This document shows, in pieces, positions 2,955 to 49,390 of a stretch of DNA of 64,000 nt. Every line of letters begins with the position of its first letter. Within the stretch, counting starts at the first letter, position 1. This DNA is from an uncultured Gammaproteobacteria bacterium (GTDB lineage: Bacteria > Patescibacteriota > Microgenomatia > Daviesbacterales > UBA10151), in contig CAYMZD010000002.1 in NCBI GenBank assembly GCA_964394855.1, positions 131,964-195,963 of the forward strand, given 5' to 3'. Under the pieces are notes generated by a model. The model saw nothing but the letters and a program-made list of their open reading frames with translations. It had not been told where the DNA came from and made no database searches. The position numbers were made by a program, and so were the translations under genes.

Positions 2955-3509
2955 ATGTCAAGAATAGGTCGTTTACCAATTAATATCCCCAGTGGTGTGA
3001 CTGTAGAAAAATCAAATAGTCGTGTGGTGGTTAAAGGAGCAAATGGTCGCTTGGAAATGGATATCAGTCCTAAGATTAGTGTGGAGGTGAGTCAGGATAA
3101 AATTTTGGTAACCAGAAAAGATGATCAAAAGTTAACCCGTTCCCTGCATGGATTAACCCGTTCACTTATCTACAATATGATAGTAGGGGTAAGTGAGGGC
3201 TGGTTCAAGAAATTACAGTTGGTGGGAGTTGGTTATAAGGCTTTGCAAACAGGAGATAAATTGATATTGTCAGTTGGTTTTTCTCATCCGGTTGAAATAC
3301 AAACTCCAACTGGAGTGACCCTAGAAGTTTTTGATAACACCAATATTACAGTTTCTGGGGTCGATAAACAACTTGTTGGTCAAGTGGCTGCCAAAATTAG
3401 AAAAATTAAACCACCAGAAGTTTATAAAGGTAAAGGGATCAGATATGAGGGTGAATATATTAGAAGAAAACAAGGTAAAGCAAGTAAGGTAGGTGTTGGG
3501 GGTAAATAA
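2955..3509 (+). CDS. rplF: 50S ribosomal protein L6
   Basis: 184 aa, MSRIGRLPI... typical of L6. Confidence 0.9.
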   Translation: MSRIGRLPINIPSGVTVEKSNSRVVVKGANGRLEMDISPKISVEVSQDKILVTRKDDQKLTRSLHGLTRSLIYNMIVGVSEGWFKKLQLVGVGYKALQTGDKLILSVGFSHPVEIQTPTGVTLEVFDNTNITVSGVDKQLVGQVAAKIRKIKPPEVYKGKGIRYEGEYIRRKQGKASKVGVGGK

Positions 3510-4719: not shown

Positions 4720-6008
4720 ATACTTCAATACTATCACCCATCTTTAATGCTTTTAGAATAAAAGAACTCCGTCAAAAAATTATCATGACGGTTTTGATAG
4801 TGATTATTTTTAGAATGATTGCTCATGTTCCAGTGGGAGGAATTGATTTAGAAGCAATGCGGGCTCTTTTTCAAAGCAATCAGTTTTTAGGCCTTTTGGA
4901 TATATTTTCTGGTGGAACTTTGGCTAACTTTTCCATCATCTCCTTGGGTTTAAATCCTTATATTAATGCCTCAATTATTATGCAGCTTTTAACCATGGTC
5001 TTTCCCAAGCTAGAAGAGTTATCAAAAGAAGGAGAGATGGGTAGGCAACAGATAAATCAATATACCAGAATGTTGACAATTCCGCTGGCTCTTGTGCAAT
5101 CAATAGGAATGTTTGTCTTACTTCGCAATCAAGGAGTCTTGGGAATGACAACTCCTCTGCAGATGACGTCCATTGTGGTGGGAATGACCGCGGGTACCAT
5201 TCTTTTAATGTGGTTGGGAGAGCTCATTAGCGAATACGGTATTGGTAATGGTATATCTTTGTTGATTTTTGCTGGGATAGTAGCCAGATTGCCGGTAGTT
5301 TTGACCCAAACTGCCTCTTTGGCCGATTCAGCCCAAATGTTGAATATCTTGGTATTTGCGATACTAGGTTTGGTGGTTATTTCGGGTATAGTTTTTATCA
5401 ATGAAGCTCGTCGACAAATTACTATCCAATATGCCAGAAGATTTATTGGAGGTAGGGAATCCGGTGGATCTCAAACATATTTACCCCTCCGGGTTAATCA
5501 AGCTGGAGTGATCCCTATTATTTTTGCTGTATCTTTAGTTTTGGTACCATCTTTTGCTGGTAGCTATTTAGCTGGGACTACTAATCCACAGCTTTCATTT
5601 TTGGGTCGCTTTTTGGTAGCCAATTTTCATCCCAGCAGCTTATTTTATAATAGCGTTTATTTTTTACTGGTGGTCGGTTTTACTTATTTTTATACGGCAG
5701 TTATTTTTAATCCCACTAAAATTGCCGATGAGATTAGAAAGGTAGGAGCCTTTATTCCTGGCATTAGACCAGGTAGCTCCACCACCTCCTATCTTAACTA
5801 TATTTTAGTAAGGATTACTCTGGCTGGAGCAATTTTTTTGGGGGTGGTGGCAATTTTACCATCAATAGCCTCTCAAATTACGGGAATCACCACATTAATT
5901 TTAGGTGGGACTGGAATGTTAATTGTGGTTTCGGTCATTATGGATACTGCCAAACAGTTTGAAAGTAAATTAATTGAACGAAGTTATGAAGGGTTTTTAA
6001 AAAGATGA
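4716..6008 (+). CDS. secY: Preprotein translocase subunit SecY
   Basis: 430 aa polytopic membrane protein with SecY signature regions; canonical position after L15. Confidence 0.9.
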
Positions 6009-31938: not shown

Positions 31939-32890
31939 TATTTCACACAAGACAATAATTTTTGTCACCATATTTTTGTTAAGTCTTTGGATTGTTTATC
32001 ATATCCTAGATTTATTATTACTTTTATTTGTGGCTTTAATTTTTATGTCTGCTCTATCTCCTTTGATAAGTTTTCTTCAAAAACTAAAAATTCCTAAGGT
32101 TTTGGGAGTTTTGATAATTTATCTATTATTTTTGGGAGCAATTGGCGGACTGTTGACAGTTTCTTTTACTCCTTTGATTGAAGAAACAACCAAACTGGCA
32201 CTGACTCTGCCATCTGCTTTGGCAGATTTGCTAAAAGTTAATAATTTAGATCCAAATGTTATTCAATCTGAAGTGAGTAATTTATCAAAAAATTTGTTTT
32301 CCACTACTAGGGCAATTTTTGATAACATCATTACCATAATTTTTCTTTTGGTCTTGACATTTTATCTATTGCTGGAAAGAGAAAACTTGGAAAAAAGAGC
32401 TGCTTTCTTATTCACGGGCCAAGAAGACAGGATACAAAAGTTATTAATGGAGATAGAGGGAAAATTAGGTGCCTGGCTTCGTGGACAACTTTTTTTGAGT
32501 TTAATTATTGGGGTGCTGGTTTATTTAGGGCTATCTGTTTTACAGATTCCTTATGCCCTATCGCTGTCAATTTTAGCTGCCTTTACTGAAGTTATTCCTG
32601 TAATCGGCCCAATTATTTCTGCTATTCCAGCCATTCTTTTAGCATTGACTATTTCTCCGGTTTTAGCGGCAGTTGTTACAGCAATGTATTTTGTTATCCA
32701 ACAATTAGAAAATCATCTGGTGGTGCCACAGGTAATGAAAAAGGCGGTAGGTTTAAATCCTTTGGTGGTAATTTTGGCAATTGCTGTCGGGGGAAGGCTT
32801 TTAGGTATTGGCGGAGCCCTTTTGGCAGTACCTATTGTGGTGGTTTTGCAAATAATTGTGTTGGATATTCTAAGAGAAAAAAATGCCTAG
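31922..32890 (+). CDS. AI-2E family transporter (PerM/UPF0118)
   Basis: 8 TM segments with conserved C-terminal FTEVIPVIGPIIS...AVPIV region. Confidence 0.75.
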   Translation: MSRKIDISHKTIIFVTIFLLSLWIVYHILDLLLLLFVALIFMSALSPLISFLQKLKIPKVLGVLIIYLLFLGAIGGLLTVSFTPLIEETTKLALTLPSALADLLKVNNLDPNVIQSEVSNLSKNLFSTTRAIFDNIITIIFLLVLTFYLLLERENLEKRAAFLFTGQEDRIQKLLMEIEGKLGAWLRGQLFLSLIIGVLVYLGLSVLQIPYALSLSILAAFTEVIPVIGPIISAIPAILLALTISPVLAAVVTAMYFVIQQLENHLVVPQVMKKAVGLNPLVVILAIAVGGRLLGIGGALLAVPIVVVLQIIVLDILREKNA

Positions 32891-33216
32891 GAAGCTTGTA
32901 AGCCAGATTCTGTTTTAAGGCGATTATTTATCTAGTGCTCCTGACTTAGACCTTTAGGCGAGTAACCTGGTCATATCTAGGATTGCAGCGGGGAGGATTG
33001 CCTCTTTTCACCCTCTACCCCATACCAGATGGTATAGGGTGAGTCGTAGTCTCTGTGGCTCTCCAGCCAAAGGCTGGTCGTCCTTTGGACGAAACTAGCG
33101 GTTACCCGTGGATCGATTACTCGACCCCACCCTTACTCTGTGCTGTCTGGACTTTCCTGAACGTAACAAATCACTTGGTGACTGTGTACGTCCCAATCAC
33201 CCATCTTCCTAGGCCC
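32885..33216 (-). ncRNA. rnpB: RNase P RNA (bacterial), about 332 nt
   Basis: Minus-strand read contains CAGGAAAGTCCAGAC (CR-I/P4 5' strand) and AACAGAATCTGGCTTACA (CR-V/P4 3' strand); P1 formed by 5' GCCTAGGAAG and 3' CTTCCTAGGC; lies in an ORF-free gap. Confidence 0.8.
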
Positions 33217-44796: not shown

Positions 44797-46365
44797 ATGA
44801 AATGGAAAGTATTGCCCAAAAAATCTAATGATTTGATTAAACAACTGCTTATTAATAGGAGGATAAAAACCAAGGAAGAATTTGAAAAATTCTTTAATCC
44901 TAATTTAGGAGATTATCAAAAAGATTTGTCAATTCCCGGGATTTCCAAAGCCACAGAGCGAATAAAAAAAGCCATTAAAACGCAAGAGTTAATTATAGCC
45001 TATGGAGATTTCGATGTTGATGGGATTGCTGGGGCAGCTATTTTATATTTAGGGCTTACTAAAATGGGGGCTAAAGTCTTGCCTTACATCCCTCATCGGG
45101 AAAAAGAAGGTTATGGTTTATCTTTTGTGGGTTTGGATTTTGCCAGAGATGCCGGTGCTTCTATAGTGGTGACAACAGATACCGGCATTGTGGCTTTTAG
45201 GGAGGCCAAATATGCCAAAAGTTTAGGACTAGATTTAATTATTACTGATCACCATGAGCCCCAAGGGGTAAAAAGGCCTGATGCTTTTGCCATTGTCCAC
45301 TCGCTTACTCTTTGTGGGGCTGCAGTAGCTTGGACGCTAGTAAAAGATGAAGAACTTCTGGATTTAGTGGCCATTGCCACAGTAGCAGATATGATGCCTC
45401 TTTTAGGAGTAAATCGGGTTTTGGTAAAAAAGGGTTTAGCAAAGTTAAATTTAACCAAAAGAATTGGGTTATTGGCTCTTTTTCATGAGGCAGGAATATC
45501 TTTGGGGAAAATTGGTGCATATGAAATTGGCCATATTATTGCCCCACGTTTAAATGCCATGGGAAGATTGGAACATGCTATAGATTCCTTAAGACTTCTT
45601 TGTACTAAAGATGTAAATAAAGCCAGAAGACTGGCCAGTTTGGTAGGGGAAACAAACACAAAACGCCAACTCCTAACTCAAGAAGCTGTCAATGAGGCCA
45701 AACTGCAAATAGATGGCAAGGAAAAAATTCATATTTTGACATCAGCTGCTTGGTCTCCAGGCATAATTGGTTTGGTGGCAGCCAGAGTTTGTGAGGAAAC
45801 GGGAAAACCAGCCATTGCTATTTCTCTGGGGCAGGAAGAGTCAAGAGGTTCTGCTCGCTCCAATGGTACAGTTAATGTGGTGGAGGTTATCCGAAGTTGT
45901 TCTGATATTTTAGTGGCAGTAGGAGGACATTTTGGTGCGGCTGGATTTACCATTGCCACAAAATATTTAAAAGTATTCCAAAAAAGATTGGAAAGCATGG
46001 ATTTACCAATAGATCAAGAGGAAAGAATTTTGGAAATAGAAGCTGAAATGCCTGTCAAAGAATTAACTTTGGAACTGGCCAAAAACTTAGAGGATTTTGA
46101 ACCTTTTGGAATAGGCAATCAAAAACCTATTTTGGCCACATCTAATATGCAGATTTCAGATTTAAGAACAGTTGGTGATAATAAACATCTGAAAGGTAAA
46201 GCAGATGGAATAGATTTCATTGCCTTTGGTATGGGGGAGCTCATAAATCAGTTGGTTTACCCTGAGCGAAGTCAAAGGGTTAACATGGCTTATACTTTGG
46301 AAATAGATAAGTGGGACGGTAGGGAAAAACTGCAGCTTAAGGTTAAGGATATAAAACTTAATTAA
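44797..46365 (+). CDS. recJ: Single-stranded-DNA-specific exonuclease RecJ (DHH + DHHA1)
   Basis: DFDVDG, ITDHH, GGH..AAG motifs. Confidence 0.75.
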   Translation: MKWKVLPKKSNDLIKQLLINRRIKTKEEFEKFFNPNLGDYQKDLSIPGISKATERIKKAIKTQELIIAYGDFDVDGIAGAAILYLGLTKMGAKVLPYIPHREKEGYGLSFVGLDFARDAGASIVVTTDTGIVAFREAKYAKSLGLDLIITDHHEPQGVKRPDAFAIVHSLTLCGAAVAWTLVKDEELLDLVAIATVADMMPLLGVNRVLVKKGLAKLNLTKRIGLLALFHEAGISLGKIGAYEIGHIIAPRLNAMGRLEHAIDSLRLLCTKDVNKARRLASLVGETNTKRQLLTQEAVNEAKLQIDGKEKIHILTSAAWSPGIIGLVAARVCEETGKPAIAISLGQEESRGSARSNGTVNVVEVIRSCSDILVAVGGHFGAAGFTIATKYLKVFQKRLESMDLPIDQEERILEIEAEMPVKELTLELAKNLEDFEPFGIGNQKPILATSNMQISDLRTVGDNKHLKGKADGIDFIAFGMGELINQLVYPERSQRVNMAYTLEIDKWDGREKLQLKVKDIKLN

Positions 46366-46591
46366 AAGGATCCCATCTGAAACGCTTCACCACTCGTTCC
46401 ATGGTCGCGAAGTCTCCAGAAACTATAGCATCCTCCAATAATTGAACTATATCTGGTTGGCCAACCCCACTACCATTTGCTCGACTCTTTCGAACCTCGG
46501 CATCAAAGTTGTAGCTTATTTTTGGTGGCGGCTCTTGAGAGTTAGCGACATCTCCCATTACACCACCTCCTTCTTTTTCACAATCTGCCAT
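46358..46591 (-). CDS. Hypothetical small protein (77 aa), strong SD AAAGGGGGTG
   Basis: ORF plus canonical SD spacing; GC-richer than surroundings. Confidence 0.45.
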   Translation of the reverse strand: MADCEKEGGGVMGDVANSQEPPPKISYNFDAEVRKSRANGSGVGQPDIVQLLEDAIVSGDFATMERVVKRFRWDPFN

Positions 46592-46613
46592 AATTTACAC
46601 CCCCTTTCAAGTA

Positions 46614-46640
46614 TTAAAAAACCTCCCCTTGTGGGAGGTC
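46614..46640 (-). terminator. Intrinsic terminator on minus strand (CCTCCC-ACAA-GGGAGG + U6)
   Basis: GC hairpin followed by TTTTTT in minus-strand sense, downstream of 46804 gene. Confidence 0.5.
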
Positions 46641-46803
46641 TAAGTCCTTTCTTTTTTAGATAAAAATTTACCTAAAAAGACCTCCCAAAAAAGTGGTCAA
46701 GATGACCACCAAAAGGAGGCCAAGCAAAATTTCAATTCTTCTTAAATCCAAACTTTCAACTTTTGACATGTAAAAAGCAAAGCTTAAATAAACTTTGCTA
46801 TTT

Positions 46804-47247
46804 TTATTTTAGCATTGCTTCTAACCTTTTGTCAAGGATTTGTGTATGAGCTGGTAATTTGCCATTTGTTCCACCATTAACTATTCTAATCCACTTCAGA
46901 TCTCCTCTTTGCAAAGGACACTCGACTCCGCCTCCTGGTTTTGGTAAAACACCATCCTCGTGAGTACAATGTCTTAATCCTGTAGGATCCATGTAGCGAC
47001 ATCTGATTACTCGTTTATCCTCTACTTGCTCGCAGGGCTGAATTAATCCACCGTTCTCAATAACTTGTCTTGCAGCCATTACAGCTGCGATTGGTGAGTA
47101 GATCGGCTGCGTTACCAATTGTCCATAGGGAAACCGATTCCAGCATTTACCATCCCATTCAAACATGGCTGTCTCGCCACTACTTGGATTAGTAGATAAC
47201 GCTCTTTCTCCTGGTTTATAAATTAATTCAGTTTTTTCTACTGGCAT
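46804..47247 (-). CDS. Hypothetical Cys/His-containing protein (147 aa from MPVEK start)
   Basis: SD GAAAGGAGG 7 nt upstream of ATG at 47247; ORF track version starts 6 codons earlier. Confidence 0.5.
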   Translation of the reverse strand: MPVEKTELIYKPGERALSTNPSSGETAMFEWDGKCWNRFPYGQLVTQPIYSPIAAVMAARQVIENGGLIQPCEQVEDKRVIRCRYMDPTGLRHCTHEDGVLPKPGGGVECPLQRGDLKWIRIVNGGTNGKLPAHTQILDKRLEAMLK

Positions 47248-47348
47248 AATTTTTCCTCCTTTCAAAAAGAATTAAATATGTAATTTCTTTTGCGGTTGGG
47301 CGAACGATGGTAATTCAACCCAACCGTATTTAAAGTTATCCTCGTCCA

Positions 47349-47747
47349 TTATCTTCTCATCCATCGAGGATTATGGTAAGTTCTTTTAACTTCTTGATAA
47401 TACCCTCCTTCATTTGGACCACCTAAGGTTCGTGCACGTTCAACATAAACCTTATCCCAGTAGGATATCCTGATAGGACGCTCACACAGAGTAACAGCGA
47501 GAATCGGCTGTTTTCCGTCTCCACCTTTTCTAAGTTTATCGGTAGCTCCTTTTCCTTCTTGAGTTAAACCAATAACCCTTCTACCTCCAACAGCCGGGCT
47601 TTCTACCACAAGAATTTGTCTGTTTTGTCTTGCTTCTATTCCGCTGACATCTACATATAATGGGCTTCCATCTAGCATGTGATATGGTCCAGTTTCATCT
47701 GGCACATCAGCAACTAATTGACCATTTATTCTTATTTCTGGTGACAT
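47349..47747 (-). CDS. Hypothetical protein (133 aa from MSPEIR start), first gene after T-box leader
   Basis: SD AAAGGAGGTGAG upstream of ATG at 47747. Confidence 0.5.
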   Translation of the reverse strand: MSPEIRINGQLVADVPDETGPYHMLDGSPLYVDVSGIEARQNRQILVVESPAVGGRRVIGLTQEGKGATDKLRKGGDGKQPILAVTLCERPIRISYWDKVYVERARTLGGPNEGGYYQEVKRTYHNPRWMRR

Positions 47748-47777
47748 ATCTCTCACCTCCTTTCAAATGTTGGCATT

Positions 47778-48036
47778 AAAAAACGCCCGTATCTCCTTTC
47801 CATTTCTGAAAAAGAAATACGGGCGATCTTTCGCGGTACCACCGTACTTTTGTACTTATCCTTGCTCCATACTTCGGCTTCGCTCAGTACGACACAAGTT
47901 TGTTCTATAACGGGAACTTCCCGTGCAAGACTACTTTTAGTTCACCTTGCCGGCTCATAGGGGAATCTTTCCTAATCAATGCCTTTGAATATTCAGTTGT
48001 AAATAAAGTATACCATAAAATTTTCATCTTGTCAAC
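47778..48036 (-). promoter_or_regulatory. T-box riboswitch leader with its promoter (minus strand)
   Basis: TTGACA(48035-48030)-17nt-TATACT(48012-48007); distal Stem I-like GUGAA/AGUAG motifs; T-box ACGGUGGUACCGCG (top 47832-47845); antiterminator A1 ACGG/CCGU, 7-nt bulge UGGUACC, A2 GCG/CGC; terminator GCCCGUAU-N24-AUACGGGC + U6 (47778-47824). Confidence 0.65.
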
Positions 48037-48067
48037 CTTATGCCGAGACTGTTATGATGCAGGAAGG

Positions 48068-49390
48068 ATGGAACGGACATTAATTTTAGATTGTAACAAT
48101 AAAATCGGTGAAAAAGTTAAAATTTGTGGCTGGGTTTGGACCCGCCGAGATCATGGCAAGATTTTATTCTTGGATGTGACTGACCGGTCTGGTTTAATTC
48201 AAGTAGTGGTAGAGGCAGCTAAAGCTCCTGATTTACATCCCCAAGATGTGGTATGCATTGAAGGCAAAGTCAACAAAAGGCCAGAGAATCTGGTGAATAA
48301 AAATATTCCTACAGGGGAAATTGAAATTTCTGCAGAATCTGTCGAAGTTTTATCCAAAGCTAAAGAGCTACCTTTTGACATGGGAAGACCAACTCTTAAT
48401 TTGGAACTACCCACTCTTTTGGACTGGCGCTCTCTTACTTTGCGCCATGCATCAGTCAAAGCCATTTTTAAAATAGAAGAGGTAGTTATCGATGCCTTTC
48501 GTCGAGCCCTACAGGCTAAAGATTTTGTGGAATTTCAAGCCCCAGCTATTATTCCATCAATACCTGAAGGCGGTTCAGAAGTATTTGCAGTGAAATATTT
48601 TAATCATCAAGTTTATTTATCCCAAAGCCCCCAACTTTATAAATCACTCTTAGTAGGAGTTTTTGAGAGGGTTTTTAGTGTTAATAAAGTATTTCGGGCA
48701 GAGCCTAGTGTAACTTCTACCCATATTACAGAATTTGTTAGTTTGGATGCCGAGTTTGGTTTTATAGACTCTTGGGAAGAAGTAAGAGATATGGCAGATT
48801 ATGTTATTAAATTTATCTTGAGAGAGGTAGGGGAAAAGTGCGCCAAGGAACTCGCTATGTTTAATGCAACAGTGCCAGCGGTAAGTGAAAAAATACCAAC
48901 CATCAAAATGAGAGAGGCGCAACAGATTATCTTTGAGCGGACCGGACGCGATTGTCGCCAAGAAAAAGATCTCTCTCCCGAGGATGAAAGAGAAATATGT
49001 AAGTGGGCCAAGGAAAACCAAAGCTCAGATTTGATATTTGTTTCTCATTATCCGACCAAATATAGACCGTTTTATACTTACCCAGATGAGGAAAATCCAG
49101 AATTTAATCAAGGATTTGATTTATTGGGACGGGGAAGGGAGTGGTTGACCGGTGGGAGAAGAATTAATGACTATGAAGTATTGATGGAGCATGTCAGGCA
49201 GTGGGGTGTAGATCCGGAAGAAATAAAATTATATTTGCAGGCTTTTGAATATGGTGTGCCCCCATTGGGAGGTTTTGCTTTTGGTGCCGAAAGAGTGACA
49301 ATGTTTATTTTAGGATTATCAAATATTCGTGAAGCTTCACTTTTTCCGCGAGATATGGAAAGGGTAGATATTAGATTGAATAAAGAATGA
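48068..49390 (+). CDS. Aspartyl/asparaginyl-tRNA synthetase, class IIb (archaeal/short type); start at MERTL with SD AGGAAGG
   Basis: N-terminal OB anticodon-binding domain, class II motifs 1-3 (FRAE..., GGFAFGAERV...). Confidence 0.8.
   Translation: MERTLILDCNNKIGEKVKICGWVWTRRDHGKILFLDVTDRSGLIQVVVEAAKAPDLHPQDVVCIEGKVNKRPENLVNKNIPTGEIEISAESVEVLSKAKELPFDMGRPTLNLELPTLLDWRSLTLRHASVKAIFKIEEVVIDAFRRALQAKDFVEFQAPAIIPSIPEGGSEVFAVKYFNHQVYLSQSPQLYKSLLVGVFERVFSVNKVFRAEPSVTSTHITEFVSLDAEFGFIDSWEEVRDMADYVIKFILREVGEKCAKELAMFNATVPAVSEKIPTIKMREAQQIIFERTGRDCRQEKDLSPEDEREICKWAKENQSSDLIFVSHYPTKYRPFYTYPDEENPEFNQGFDLLGRGREWLTGGRRINDYEVLMEHVRQWGVDPEEIKLYLQAFEYGVPPLGGFAFGAERVTMFILGLSNIREASLFPRDMERVDIRLNKE

Follow-up and report, generated by a model that had tools for sequence, protein, structure and literature searches.

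Among T-box riboswitches, the variants with a short Stem I carry the specifier in the apical loop, rely on Stem II and on the Stem IIA/B element and are typical of the translational T-boxes of actinobacteria, whereas transcriptional T-boxes generally need the long Stem I platform (PMC7583486). The same contrast between long, transcriptional and short, translational forms is drawn in TBDB (PMC7778990), and the actinobacterial ileS T-boxes of N. farcinica and M. tuberculosis are available as PDB 6UFM and 6UFG (as cited in PMC7583486). Moreover the G.U wobble of antiterminator helix A2 is regarded as the steric sensor of aminoacylation (PMC7583486). Here we describe a leader located on the minus strand of a 64,000-nucleotide (nt) stretch of contig CAYMZD010000002.1 (hereafter the window), from Candidatus Daviesbacteria of the Microgenomates in the candidate phyla radiation (CPR), which precedes three small genes of the same strand, here called genes 1, 2 and 3. 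The region 47778-48035 (-) very probably is a T-box riboswitch for tRNA-Phe with transcription attenuation as its mode of action, and for it we infer tRNA binding and switching in vivo. All coordinates are those of the window and of its minus strand, unless (+) or one of the related loci (L001-L027) is named.

The leader in front of gene 1

Judged by model match and covariation, this leader is a genuine, conserved T-box of a CPR bacterium, with a predicted ultrashort Stem I that lacks the platform and with a terminator as its output. In a local search with permissive settings the Rfam T-box model RF00230 matches positions 47816-47988 (76.5 bits, E 6.9e-17), which answers the covariance model (CM) check proposed by an earlier description of this DNA made without database searches (the sequence-only reading). 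In the CM alignment 74 Stem I model positions are replaced by 7 nt, both in the window leader and in nine related leaders. Truncated T-boxes of this kind were found 5' of gene 1 orthologues in L005/L012, L006, L007/L008, L011, L014, L015, L018/L027, L021, L022 (where the leader is cut at its 5' side) and L023, with 56-72 bits, and an alignment of ten leaders is the basis of the covariation counts given below.

Stem I is a hairpin of only 32 nt (47952-47983) composed of GGC, a K-turn (UGA...GAG), UAGG-AAAGAUUCC-CCUA and GCC. The CM aligns the K-turn at the base, and the codon stands in an apical and not in an internal loop. This apical loop of 9 nt, AAAGAUUCC (47962-47970), is identical in ten of ten leaders and holds at its 3' end the proposed specifier codon UUC for phenylalanine (47963-47965), followed by a C. 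Neither the AG bulge nor the distal loop, whose interdigitated T-loops contact the tRNA elbow, was found in Stem I, which therefore has no tRNA-elbow platform. The hairpin that the sequence-only reading had taken for a Stem I distal region, because of its GUGAA/AGUAG motifs, is according to the CM alignment Stem II with its S-turn (GAA ... AGUA; 47925-47951), and three of its seven pairs show compensatory changes. It is followed by the Stem IIA hairpin ACGGG-AAGUU-CCCGU and, 4 nt downstream, by the IIB strand (G)AAC (47902-47924), which together form a putative pseudoknot and contain the F-box CCGUUA, so that the S-turn of Stem II as well as the F-box of T-boxes is present. Stem IIA is 88% paired across the leaders and the pairs of the putative IIA/B pseudoknot are invariant. 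Further downstream a Stem III-like helix, CUUGUGUC...GGAGCAAG, encloses a variable hairpin (47861-47898) and has seven pairs, two of them compensated in L021. The segment AACUU, considered as a pseudoknot partner of the IIA loop, belongs to this helix, which is compensated in L021, and was rejected; likewise AGCGA/UGGAG in the Stem III insert of the window, considered as a relocated platform, is not conserved.

The T-box sequence ACGGUGGUACCGCG (47832-47845) was aligned by the CM with posterior '*', is invariant or nearly invariant in the ten leaders and corresponds to the conserved 14-nt sequence (AGGGUGGNACCGCG) with its UGGN bulge. The motif GGTGGNACCRCG occurs a single time in the window, where no other T-box was found. 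T-box sequence and antiterminator together span 47819-47848, with helix A1 ACGG/CCGU, a 7-nt bulge UGGUACC and helix A2 GCG/CGC, and the UGGU of the bulge is complementary to the ACCA-3' end of a tRNA. The intrinsic terminator (47778-47825) consists of a stem of 19 base pairs (bp), an AGAA loop and U6; the 5' arm of this stem overlaps with the 3' strands of both antiterminator helices, and the antiterminator and the terminator hairpin with its U-run are mutually exclusive. Predicted folding gives about -37 kcal/mol for the platform containing the terminator and -5.5 kcal/mol for the antiterminator alone, which would therefore need the tRNA to persist. The Shine-Dalgarno (SD) sequence of gene 1, GAAAGGAGGUGAG (47752-47764), is placed outside the terminator, 14 nt past the U-run, and thus the predicted switch is transcriptional. 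A sigma-70-type promoter is found at 48007-48035, with TTGACA, a spacer of 17 nt and a TG-extended TATACT (11 of 12 consensus positions), and a TTGACA/TGnTATA(C/A)T pair lies at equal distance in all related leaders. The sequence-only reading had already recognised this promoter, the T-box sequence, a canonical antiterminator and an overlapping terminator with U6, and had proposed the pairing of a discriminator A through UGGU; all of this stands, and the helices are now supported by covariation.

That support comes from the ten leaders, which do not differ in the apical loop, the K-turn, the S-turn, the F-box or the T-box bulge but show compensated variation in the helices. When they are laid on the structure of the antiterminator state, 96.2% of the cells are paired, against at most 47% when the partners are slid; double changes occur at ten pairs, and the observed values were reached in none of 500 shuffles. 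In L007 helix A1 reads AUGG/CCAU in place of ACGG/CCGU (C-G to U-A) and the 3' terminator arm is altered to match, helix A2 has a compensatory change in L023, and in the Stem I helix UA exchanges with CG, GC with AU and U.U with G-C.

In many of the orthologous leaders an extra GC-rich hairpin followed by U5-6 (ACACACC-N4-GGUGUGUUUUU) separates the Stem III-like helix from the T-box sequence (L005 ~4860-4885, L006, L014, L015, L021, L023 and L025 ~3370-3395); the window leader does not have it. It resembles an internal pause or terminator site and is present also in L025, whose Stem I is long.

The tRNA sensed and the alternative explanations

Provided that the T-box is functional, we are confident that the tRNA sensed is tRNA-Phe, with UUC as the predicted specifier, for which there are five independent lines of evidence. 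The most direct evidence comes from L025, where the same leader precedes a gene 1 orthologue but has a full-length Stem I (92.4 bits), with an AGUA box, the AG bulge UAGCGAG and the distal loop AGUGUAA. The CM puts UUC in the specifier columns of L025, followed by C and a CCUG stem. When the window leader is aligned directly with L025 the flanks are collinear, the difference is a clean indel of 67 nt and the 3' half reads UUC-C-CCUG in both. From this alignment the ultrashort loop appears to be a remnant, AAAG-A-UUC-C, of a canonical specifier loop, and the short Stem I apparently arose independently in the CPR lineage by a 67-nt deletion from a long one. Anchoring the codon at the 3' side of the loop, as in the ileS leader of N. 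farcinica (AUC-A), gives again UUC-C in the window loop, and by this register comparison the leader falls in the ultrashort Stem I class, with an apical specifier and dependence on Stem II and IIA/B. Bacterial tRNA-Phe carries the discriminator A73, which fits the UGGU bulge. The loop of Stem II (CUA, CCA or CAA after GAA) was considered as the specifier and discarded, as it differs between the nearly identical L005 and L006 and aligns to Stem II.

In seven distinct loci the gene 1 orthologue is preceded not by a T-box but by a short open reading frame (ORF) rich in Phe. These leader ORFs encode MYKKTTNSFFFGTFQRRLVVLVVK (L001), MKQYSNLTISRFFFTFA (L003), MTSQQTNNFFDFTFHREGVC (L009), MNSRINNSFWFYFTSPTGRLVSA (L010), MDLKTINQAFFAAS (L016), MNIININVDYFYASYKGGSLL (L020) and MNKSLNLNKAFFTFR (L026), and the Phe-rich clusters in the leader peptides are SFFFGTF, RFFFTFA, NFFDFTF, SFWFYFT, AFFAAS, AFFTFR and DYFYASY. 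The short ORF of these leaders without a T-box lies about 100 nt 5' of a terminator CCUCCC-N4-GGGAGG-U7, and a crude mask for a stalled ribosome turns this terminator into a 2:3 antiterminator fold in several of the loci; no significant Rfam match was obtained for them. Moreover gene 1 is placed upstream of the genes for PheS/PheT in L003, L009, L010, L011 and L026. L003, L009 and L026 have (thrS)-infC-rpmI-rplT and then the leader peptide, gene 1, pheS and pheT, while L010 has the leader, a 100-aa ORF, gene 1, an aminotransferase and pheS, and L011 has a T-box, gene 1, an AlaX-like gene and pheS. In the window neither pheST nor alaX nor a further copy of gene 1 was found.

The composition of the gene 1 products points in the same direction. 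The family contains 7 Phe among 4,013 residues (0.17%), against 4.95% in the long ORFs of the window, whereas Tyr, Trp, Lys (5.2%) and Ile (6.8%) are not depleted. Phe makes up 0-1.2% of the miscellaneous small ORFs that stand behind these leaders; in PheS, PheT and GlmM the values are 3.5-5%. The proposal that small proteins of unrecognised family are here tied to the charging state of a tRNA is in this way supported.

A number of observations weigh against a functional leader that senses Phe. Its score is below the gathering score of RF00230 (93 bits), and hence it is absent from a scan at the gathering threshold. The platform described for transcriptional T-boxes is absent (PMC7583486). The nucleotide 3' of the codon, a conserved purine in T-boxes, is C in all leaders including L025, and the A2 pair beside the bulge is G-C in 9/10 leaders and A-U in 1/10 (L023) instead of the G.U wobble, although which end of A2 is meant by the 'terminal pair' of the review (PMC7583486) is our own interpretation. 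The apical loop could instead form GGAA/UUCC with a similar predicted energy, and because this loop is invariant the ultrashort set offers no covariation on the reading of the codon. No tRNA-Phe gene that would permit a check of anticodon and discriminator was found in the window or the related loci, and pheS of L011 may have a promoter of its own in a TATAAT-like element that follows the hairpin of gene 1.

Some of these points would equally suit a functional T-box for another tRNA, since the loop AAAGAUUCC also holds AAA and AAG (Lys), AGA (Arg), GAU (Asp) and AUU (Ile). A73 is found in tRNA-Lys and tRNA-Ile as well, the known class with an ultrashort Stem I is specific for Ile, the divergent neighbour encodes an aspartyl-tRNA synthetase (AspRS), which would suit GAU, and AAA-G and AAG-A comply with the purine-after-codon rule of the review, with which UUC-C does not. 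We nevertheless hold such a reading very improbable, because the long Stem I of L025 aligns UUC with the specifier columns and shares the UUC-C-CCUG half, the N. farcinica-style anchoring leads to UUC, the orthologues stand behind Phe-rich leader peptides and beside pheST, Phe alone is depleted in the gene 1 family, and UUC fits the rule of a C at the third position (PMC7583486). Another way to read the low score, the G-C in place of the G.U sensor pair and the lost platform, reported as necessary for readthrough in transcriptional T-boxes (PMC7583486), is that the leader is a decayed remnant that no longer responds to tRNA and is left with the role of a terminator, constitutive or leaky, or of a 5' structure of the mRNA. 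To this we give very little credence: the truncated form is kept in at least nine distinct genomes, with only 55-69% identity between their gene 1 proteins, and the invariant loop, K-turn, S-turn, F-box and T-box bulge, together with compensation in the remaining helices including the antiterminator, argue for continued selection on the tRNA-binding conformer. In addition, tRNA binding with a sub-micromolar Kd is reported for T-boxes of actinobacteria that share this decoding module (PMC11297988).

It is also conceivable that a functional T-box depends here on a helper that makes up for the elbow contact, such as a K-turn-binding protein, pausing of the polymerase at the U-rich tracts or the extra hairpin, or a feed-forward action of the gene 1 protein itself. 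The kinetic argument speaks for it, as the platform is argued to speed up the capture of tRNA before the polymerase gets to the terminator (PMC7583486), and so do the conserved K-turn, the hairpin with U5-6 inserted before the T-box sequence in the loci listed above and the basic C-terminal tail of the gene 1 protein. However the leader of the window has no extra hairpin, and the hairpin is found also in L025, so it does not track the loss of the platform. Gene 1 moreover stands behind leader-peptide attenuators that have no T-box, and RNA binding by its product is unsupported. We consider the helper rather unlikely.

If the leader is a tRNA-Phe-sensing T-box, we propose the following course of events. 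Transcription would start at the TTGACA/TATACT promoter, and the nascent leader would fold into a decoding module formed by the K-turn Stem I with its apical UUC, the S-turn of Stem II and the IIA/B pseudoknot. By analogy with the solved actinobacterial ileS T-boxes, this module would clamp the GAA anticodon of tRNA-Phe without a contact to the elbow. The 3' ACCA of uncharged tRNA would then pair with the UGGU bulge, stabilising the weak antiterminator and blocking the 19-bp terminator, and RNA polymerase would enter gene 1 and, beyond a hairpin devoid of U-tract, gene 2. Charged tRNA-Phe could not stabilise the antiterminator, and the terminator would prevail.

As gene 1 comes first after the Phe-sensing leaders of pheST operons in related genomes, its product is most likely a Phe-starvation factor linked to the function of phenylalanyl-tRNA synthetase (PheRS) or of tRNA-Phe. 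We are tempted to go further and to suggest, tentatively, that the platform-less T-box works co-transcriptionally and controls a previously unknown, Phe-free family of PheRS/tRNA-Phe accessories or Phe-starvation effectors, namely gene 1 with its conserved 3' hairpin, and that the CPR lineage has freely swapped long T-box, short T-box and leader peptide in front of this one gene.

Genes 1 to 3 and their surroundings

Gene 1 (47349-47747) encodes an all-beta protein of 132 aa free of Phe, counted from the ATG at 47747 (the sequence-only reading had given 133 aa), and belongs to a small family restricted to CPR. About 46 relatives with 46-69% identity were found, all without annotation, and a profile search of 1.84 billion representatives gave only 37 members. 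Two large-protein matches of the profile are repetitive Laminin_G/Ig-like surface proteins and were judged compositional. The conserved motifs are GLTQEGxG, GGD, RPIRISY and NPRW. The products of genes 1, 2 and 3 are identical to the NCBI proteins HY386_00565, HY386_00570 and HY386_00575, each of the three genes has a strong SD as had been noticed, and none matches a Pfam or NCBIfam family, in agreement with the earlier failure to recognise one. No PHROGs or PADLOC matches that would indicate a phage or defence origin were obtained. Of the structure models that had been suggested, only that of gene 1 was useful: the AlphaFold model is confident (pLDDT 86.9) and all-beta, with 10 strands, and Foldseek comparisons of it with PDB and BFVD gave nothing significant (best E 2.1 and 0.2), whereas the AF2 model of gene 2 is unusable (pLDDT 36).

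The three genes had been described as richer in GC than their neighbours and as probably acquired horizontally. Their GC content is 0.41-0.45 against 0.379 +/- 0.043 in the window, that is about 1-1.6 standard deviations (SD units) above it, and their GC3 does not exceed that of the neighbours, so that composition gives no signal of horizontal acquisition. The slight excess results from the amino-acid composition, notably the absence of Phe codons.

A conserved element begins at the stop codon of gene 1 (47269-47347). It comprises a hairpin of the form GAUAACUUUA-AUA-CGGUUGGG, loop, CCCAACCG (47293-47326) which lacks a U-tract, and then a spacer AAAAGAAA..CAUAUUU. The pattern GAUAACUUUAGAUAGCGGUUGGG-loop-CCCARCCGC recurs in nearly all loci (L001-L027) whatever the next gene is; five of the 13 pairs of the hairpin show compensatory changes, and no Rfam family corresponds to it. 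The hairpin may act as a stabiliser on the 3' side, or as a site for processing or for the binding of a protein.

The gene that follows in the related loci, coding for an AlaX-like protein, glmM or the RNase P RNA, often comes after TGnTATAAT; about 8-10 nt separate this element from the start codon, and an SD is missing (L001 ~5470-5500, L005 ~5465-5485, L007 ~1180-1200, L011 2240-2265, L023 ~2120-2150). These genes look like leaderless-type transcription units. An AlaX-like protein of 194-239 aa, corresponding to the C-terminal part of tRNA-synt_2c, is found repeatedly after gene 1 (L005 5486-6070, L007 1202-1921, L011 2265-2984); it is moderately poor in Phe (~2%), precedes pheS in L011 and could be a trans-editing factor linked to tRNA-Phe. 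The PheT of these genomes is short (567-648 aa) and has no tRNA_bind domain (B2, OB-fold) among its Pfam matches (L003 6554-8500, L009 5632-7353, L026 5021-6724). The idea that gene 1 is a substitute for this N-terminal OB domain found no support, as gene 1 gave neither a Foldseek match nor a profile match to PDB sequences.

Two boxes common to the T-box leaders and the Phe-peptide leaders were noticed by eye only: (A/G)UGCCCAAAA right after the U-run of the terminator (47766-47777 in the window), and a CCTATAG-like box just 5' of the -35 element (~48036-48045), which is degenerate in the window. They suggest a shared frame of promoter and terminator into which the sensors were swapped.

Gene 2 (46804-47247) encodes a Cys/His-containing protein of 147 aa and is probably co-transcribed with gene 1. 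It has three relatives, and the pair of genes 1 and 2 recurs in L022. In L024 (1-3574) an attenuator-type terminator at the start of the contig is followed by a 376-aa protein weakly similar to prephenate dehydratase (PDT), a prephenate dehydratase, a prephenate dehydrogenase, a frameshifted gene 2 homologue and then the Leu-rich leader and a 98-aa ORF, so that these orphan genes have an unexpected neighbourhood of aromatic amino-acid biosynthesis. The best inference is that genes 1 and 2 encode Phe-starvation proteins.

Gene 3 (46358-46591), which codes for 77 aa and is nearly an orphan with one relative only, had been assigned with genes 1 and 2 to a single operon. This assignment does not hold, as gene 3 stands behind a terminator-like hairpin with U5 directly after gene 2 (46772-46799), has its own leader ORF and attenuator, and probably has its own promoter, a strong promoter-like site TTGACA-18-TG-TAAAAT being present at 46806-46835. 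The leader ORF (46668-46769) consists of 33 codons, 10 of them for Leu, and reads MSKVESLDLRRIEILLGLLLVVILTTFLGGLFR up to its stop codon; segment 1 lies at 46715-46721 and segment 2 at 46679-46686. Segments 3 and 4 form the attenuator terminator GACCUCCC-ACAA-GGGGAGGU-U6 (46616-46640) upstream of gene 3. The complementarity of segment 2 (GGGAGGUC) and segment 3 is perfect, and the stop codon is just past segment 2. The region folds with z = -6.4, and masking for a ribosome stalled on the Leu run produces the 2:3 antiterminator. The stretch 46616-46769 thus shows what defines a leader-peptide attenuator, namely an ORF with clustered codons on segment 1, alternative 2:3 and 3:4 hairpins, a U-run and a suitably positioned stop codon, and from its predicted folds it is a ribosome-mediated attenuator separate from the T-box unit. 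Against this leader the Rfam leader families gave only E values of 0.2-0.3. The same Leu-rich leader ORF follows the gene 2 homologues of L022 and L024, and the attenuator is possibly responsive to Leu. Gene 3 has 2 Leu among 77 residues, but its counterpart in L024 is not poor in Leu, so that depletion of Leu was rejected as a general trait of the genes behind this leader.

Further features were noticed in the window and in the related loci. The divergent gene aspS encodes a non-discriminating AspRS according to NCBIfam, and a promoter-like site at 48029-48070 (+), with a -10 element that ends 10 nt before the ATG, leaves almost no 5' untranslated region and no T-box. The RNase P RNA of the window (32883-33212) scores 102.9 bits against the Rfam threshold of 100, and that of L001 (5500-5847) fails with 65.8 bits; both have large deletions with respect to the type A model, which looks like a reduced RNase P RNA of CPR type. 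SAM-I/IV riboswitches are found 5' of metK in related Microgenomates loci (L005 7665-7775, L023 3586-3688).

Comparison with known systems

A terminator-type T-box that has no platform and is kept across many genomes stands against the view of the review, in which transcriptional T-boxes generally need a long Stem I and short ones go with translational control. If it functions co-transcriptionally as proposed, this would contradict the need for a Stem I elbow contact in terminator-type T-boxes, and the window leader and the long Stem I leader of L025 offer a natural matched pair in which the kinetic contribution of the platform could be assessed. Since such leaders fall under the Rfam threshold, standard pipelines do not see T-box regulation in CPR/Patescibacteria. 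Our literature search, confined to one library of papers, found no paper on T-boxes in these bacteria or on an ultrashort T-box of terminator type, which is weak negative evidence. Beyond the sequence-only reading, the analysis names the amino acid predicted to be sensed (Phe), connects gene 1 with pheST and with Phe leader-peptide attenuators, and derives the short Stem I from a canonical one by deletion. Moreover one orphan family nearly free of Phe would be wired to Phe limitation through three different sensors, which singles it out as a specific and testable starvation factor beside pheST in bacteria whose amino-acid economy is poorly understood.

The leader peptides of the related loci resemble the Phe attenuators of E. 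coli (pheM-pheST and pheL-pheA; RF01859), with which L001, L003, L009, L010, L016, L020 and L026 share short ORFs with Phe codons, 1:2, 2:3 and 3:4 hairpins and a terminator. In E. coli pheM lies between rplT and pheS, and the Phe leaders of L003, L009 and L026 occupy this same position. The differences are that the window uses a T-box and that the CPR loci insert gene 1 between attenuator and pheS. A precedent for T-box control of a small protein that is not an enzyme, and that passes on the charging state of a single tRNA to other targets, is B. subtilis rtpA (anti-TRAP), whose T-box is specific for Trp and has a long Stem I of the canonical kind; to our knowledge rtpA has no similarity of sequence or fold to genes 1-3.

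With the canonical transcriptional T-boxes (RF00230; Bacillus tyrS, glyQS and pheS) the window leader shares the K-turn base, a specifier, the Stem II S-turn, IIA/B with the F-box, the T-box sequence, the 7-nt bulge with its UGGN-NCCA pairing, and an antiterminator opposed to a terminator with a U-run, and L025 shows the full-length version in the same gene context. It differs from them in having no specifier-loop S-turn, AG bulge or distal loop, in its apical codon, in the C after the codon and in the G-C for G.U beside the bulge. In addition it regulates an orphan small protein, and not an aminoacyl-tRNA synthetase, biosynthetic or transporter gene, and its host belongs to the CPR.

The actinobacterial ileS leader (T99 sequence of N. 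farcinica) also has a short K-turn Stem I with the K-turn GA at nt 7-8, a codon at the loop's 3' end with a single nt between it and the stem, a Stem II S-turn GAA/AGUA, the identical IIA ACGGG/CCCGU and IIB 4 nt downstream. In contrast to it the window leader has a 19-bp terminator with U6 and no sequestration of the SD, which lies outside, its specifier is UUC (Phe) and not AUC (Ile), and its loop has 9 nt and not 6. In its predicted architecture the CPR leader is therefore an actinobacterial-type decoding module joined to a Firmicute-type terminator.

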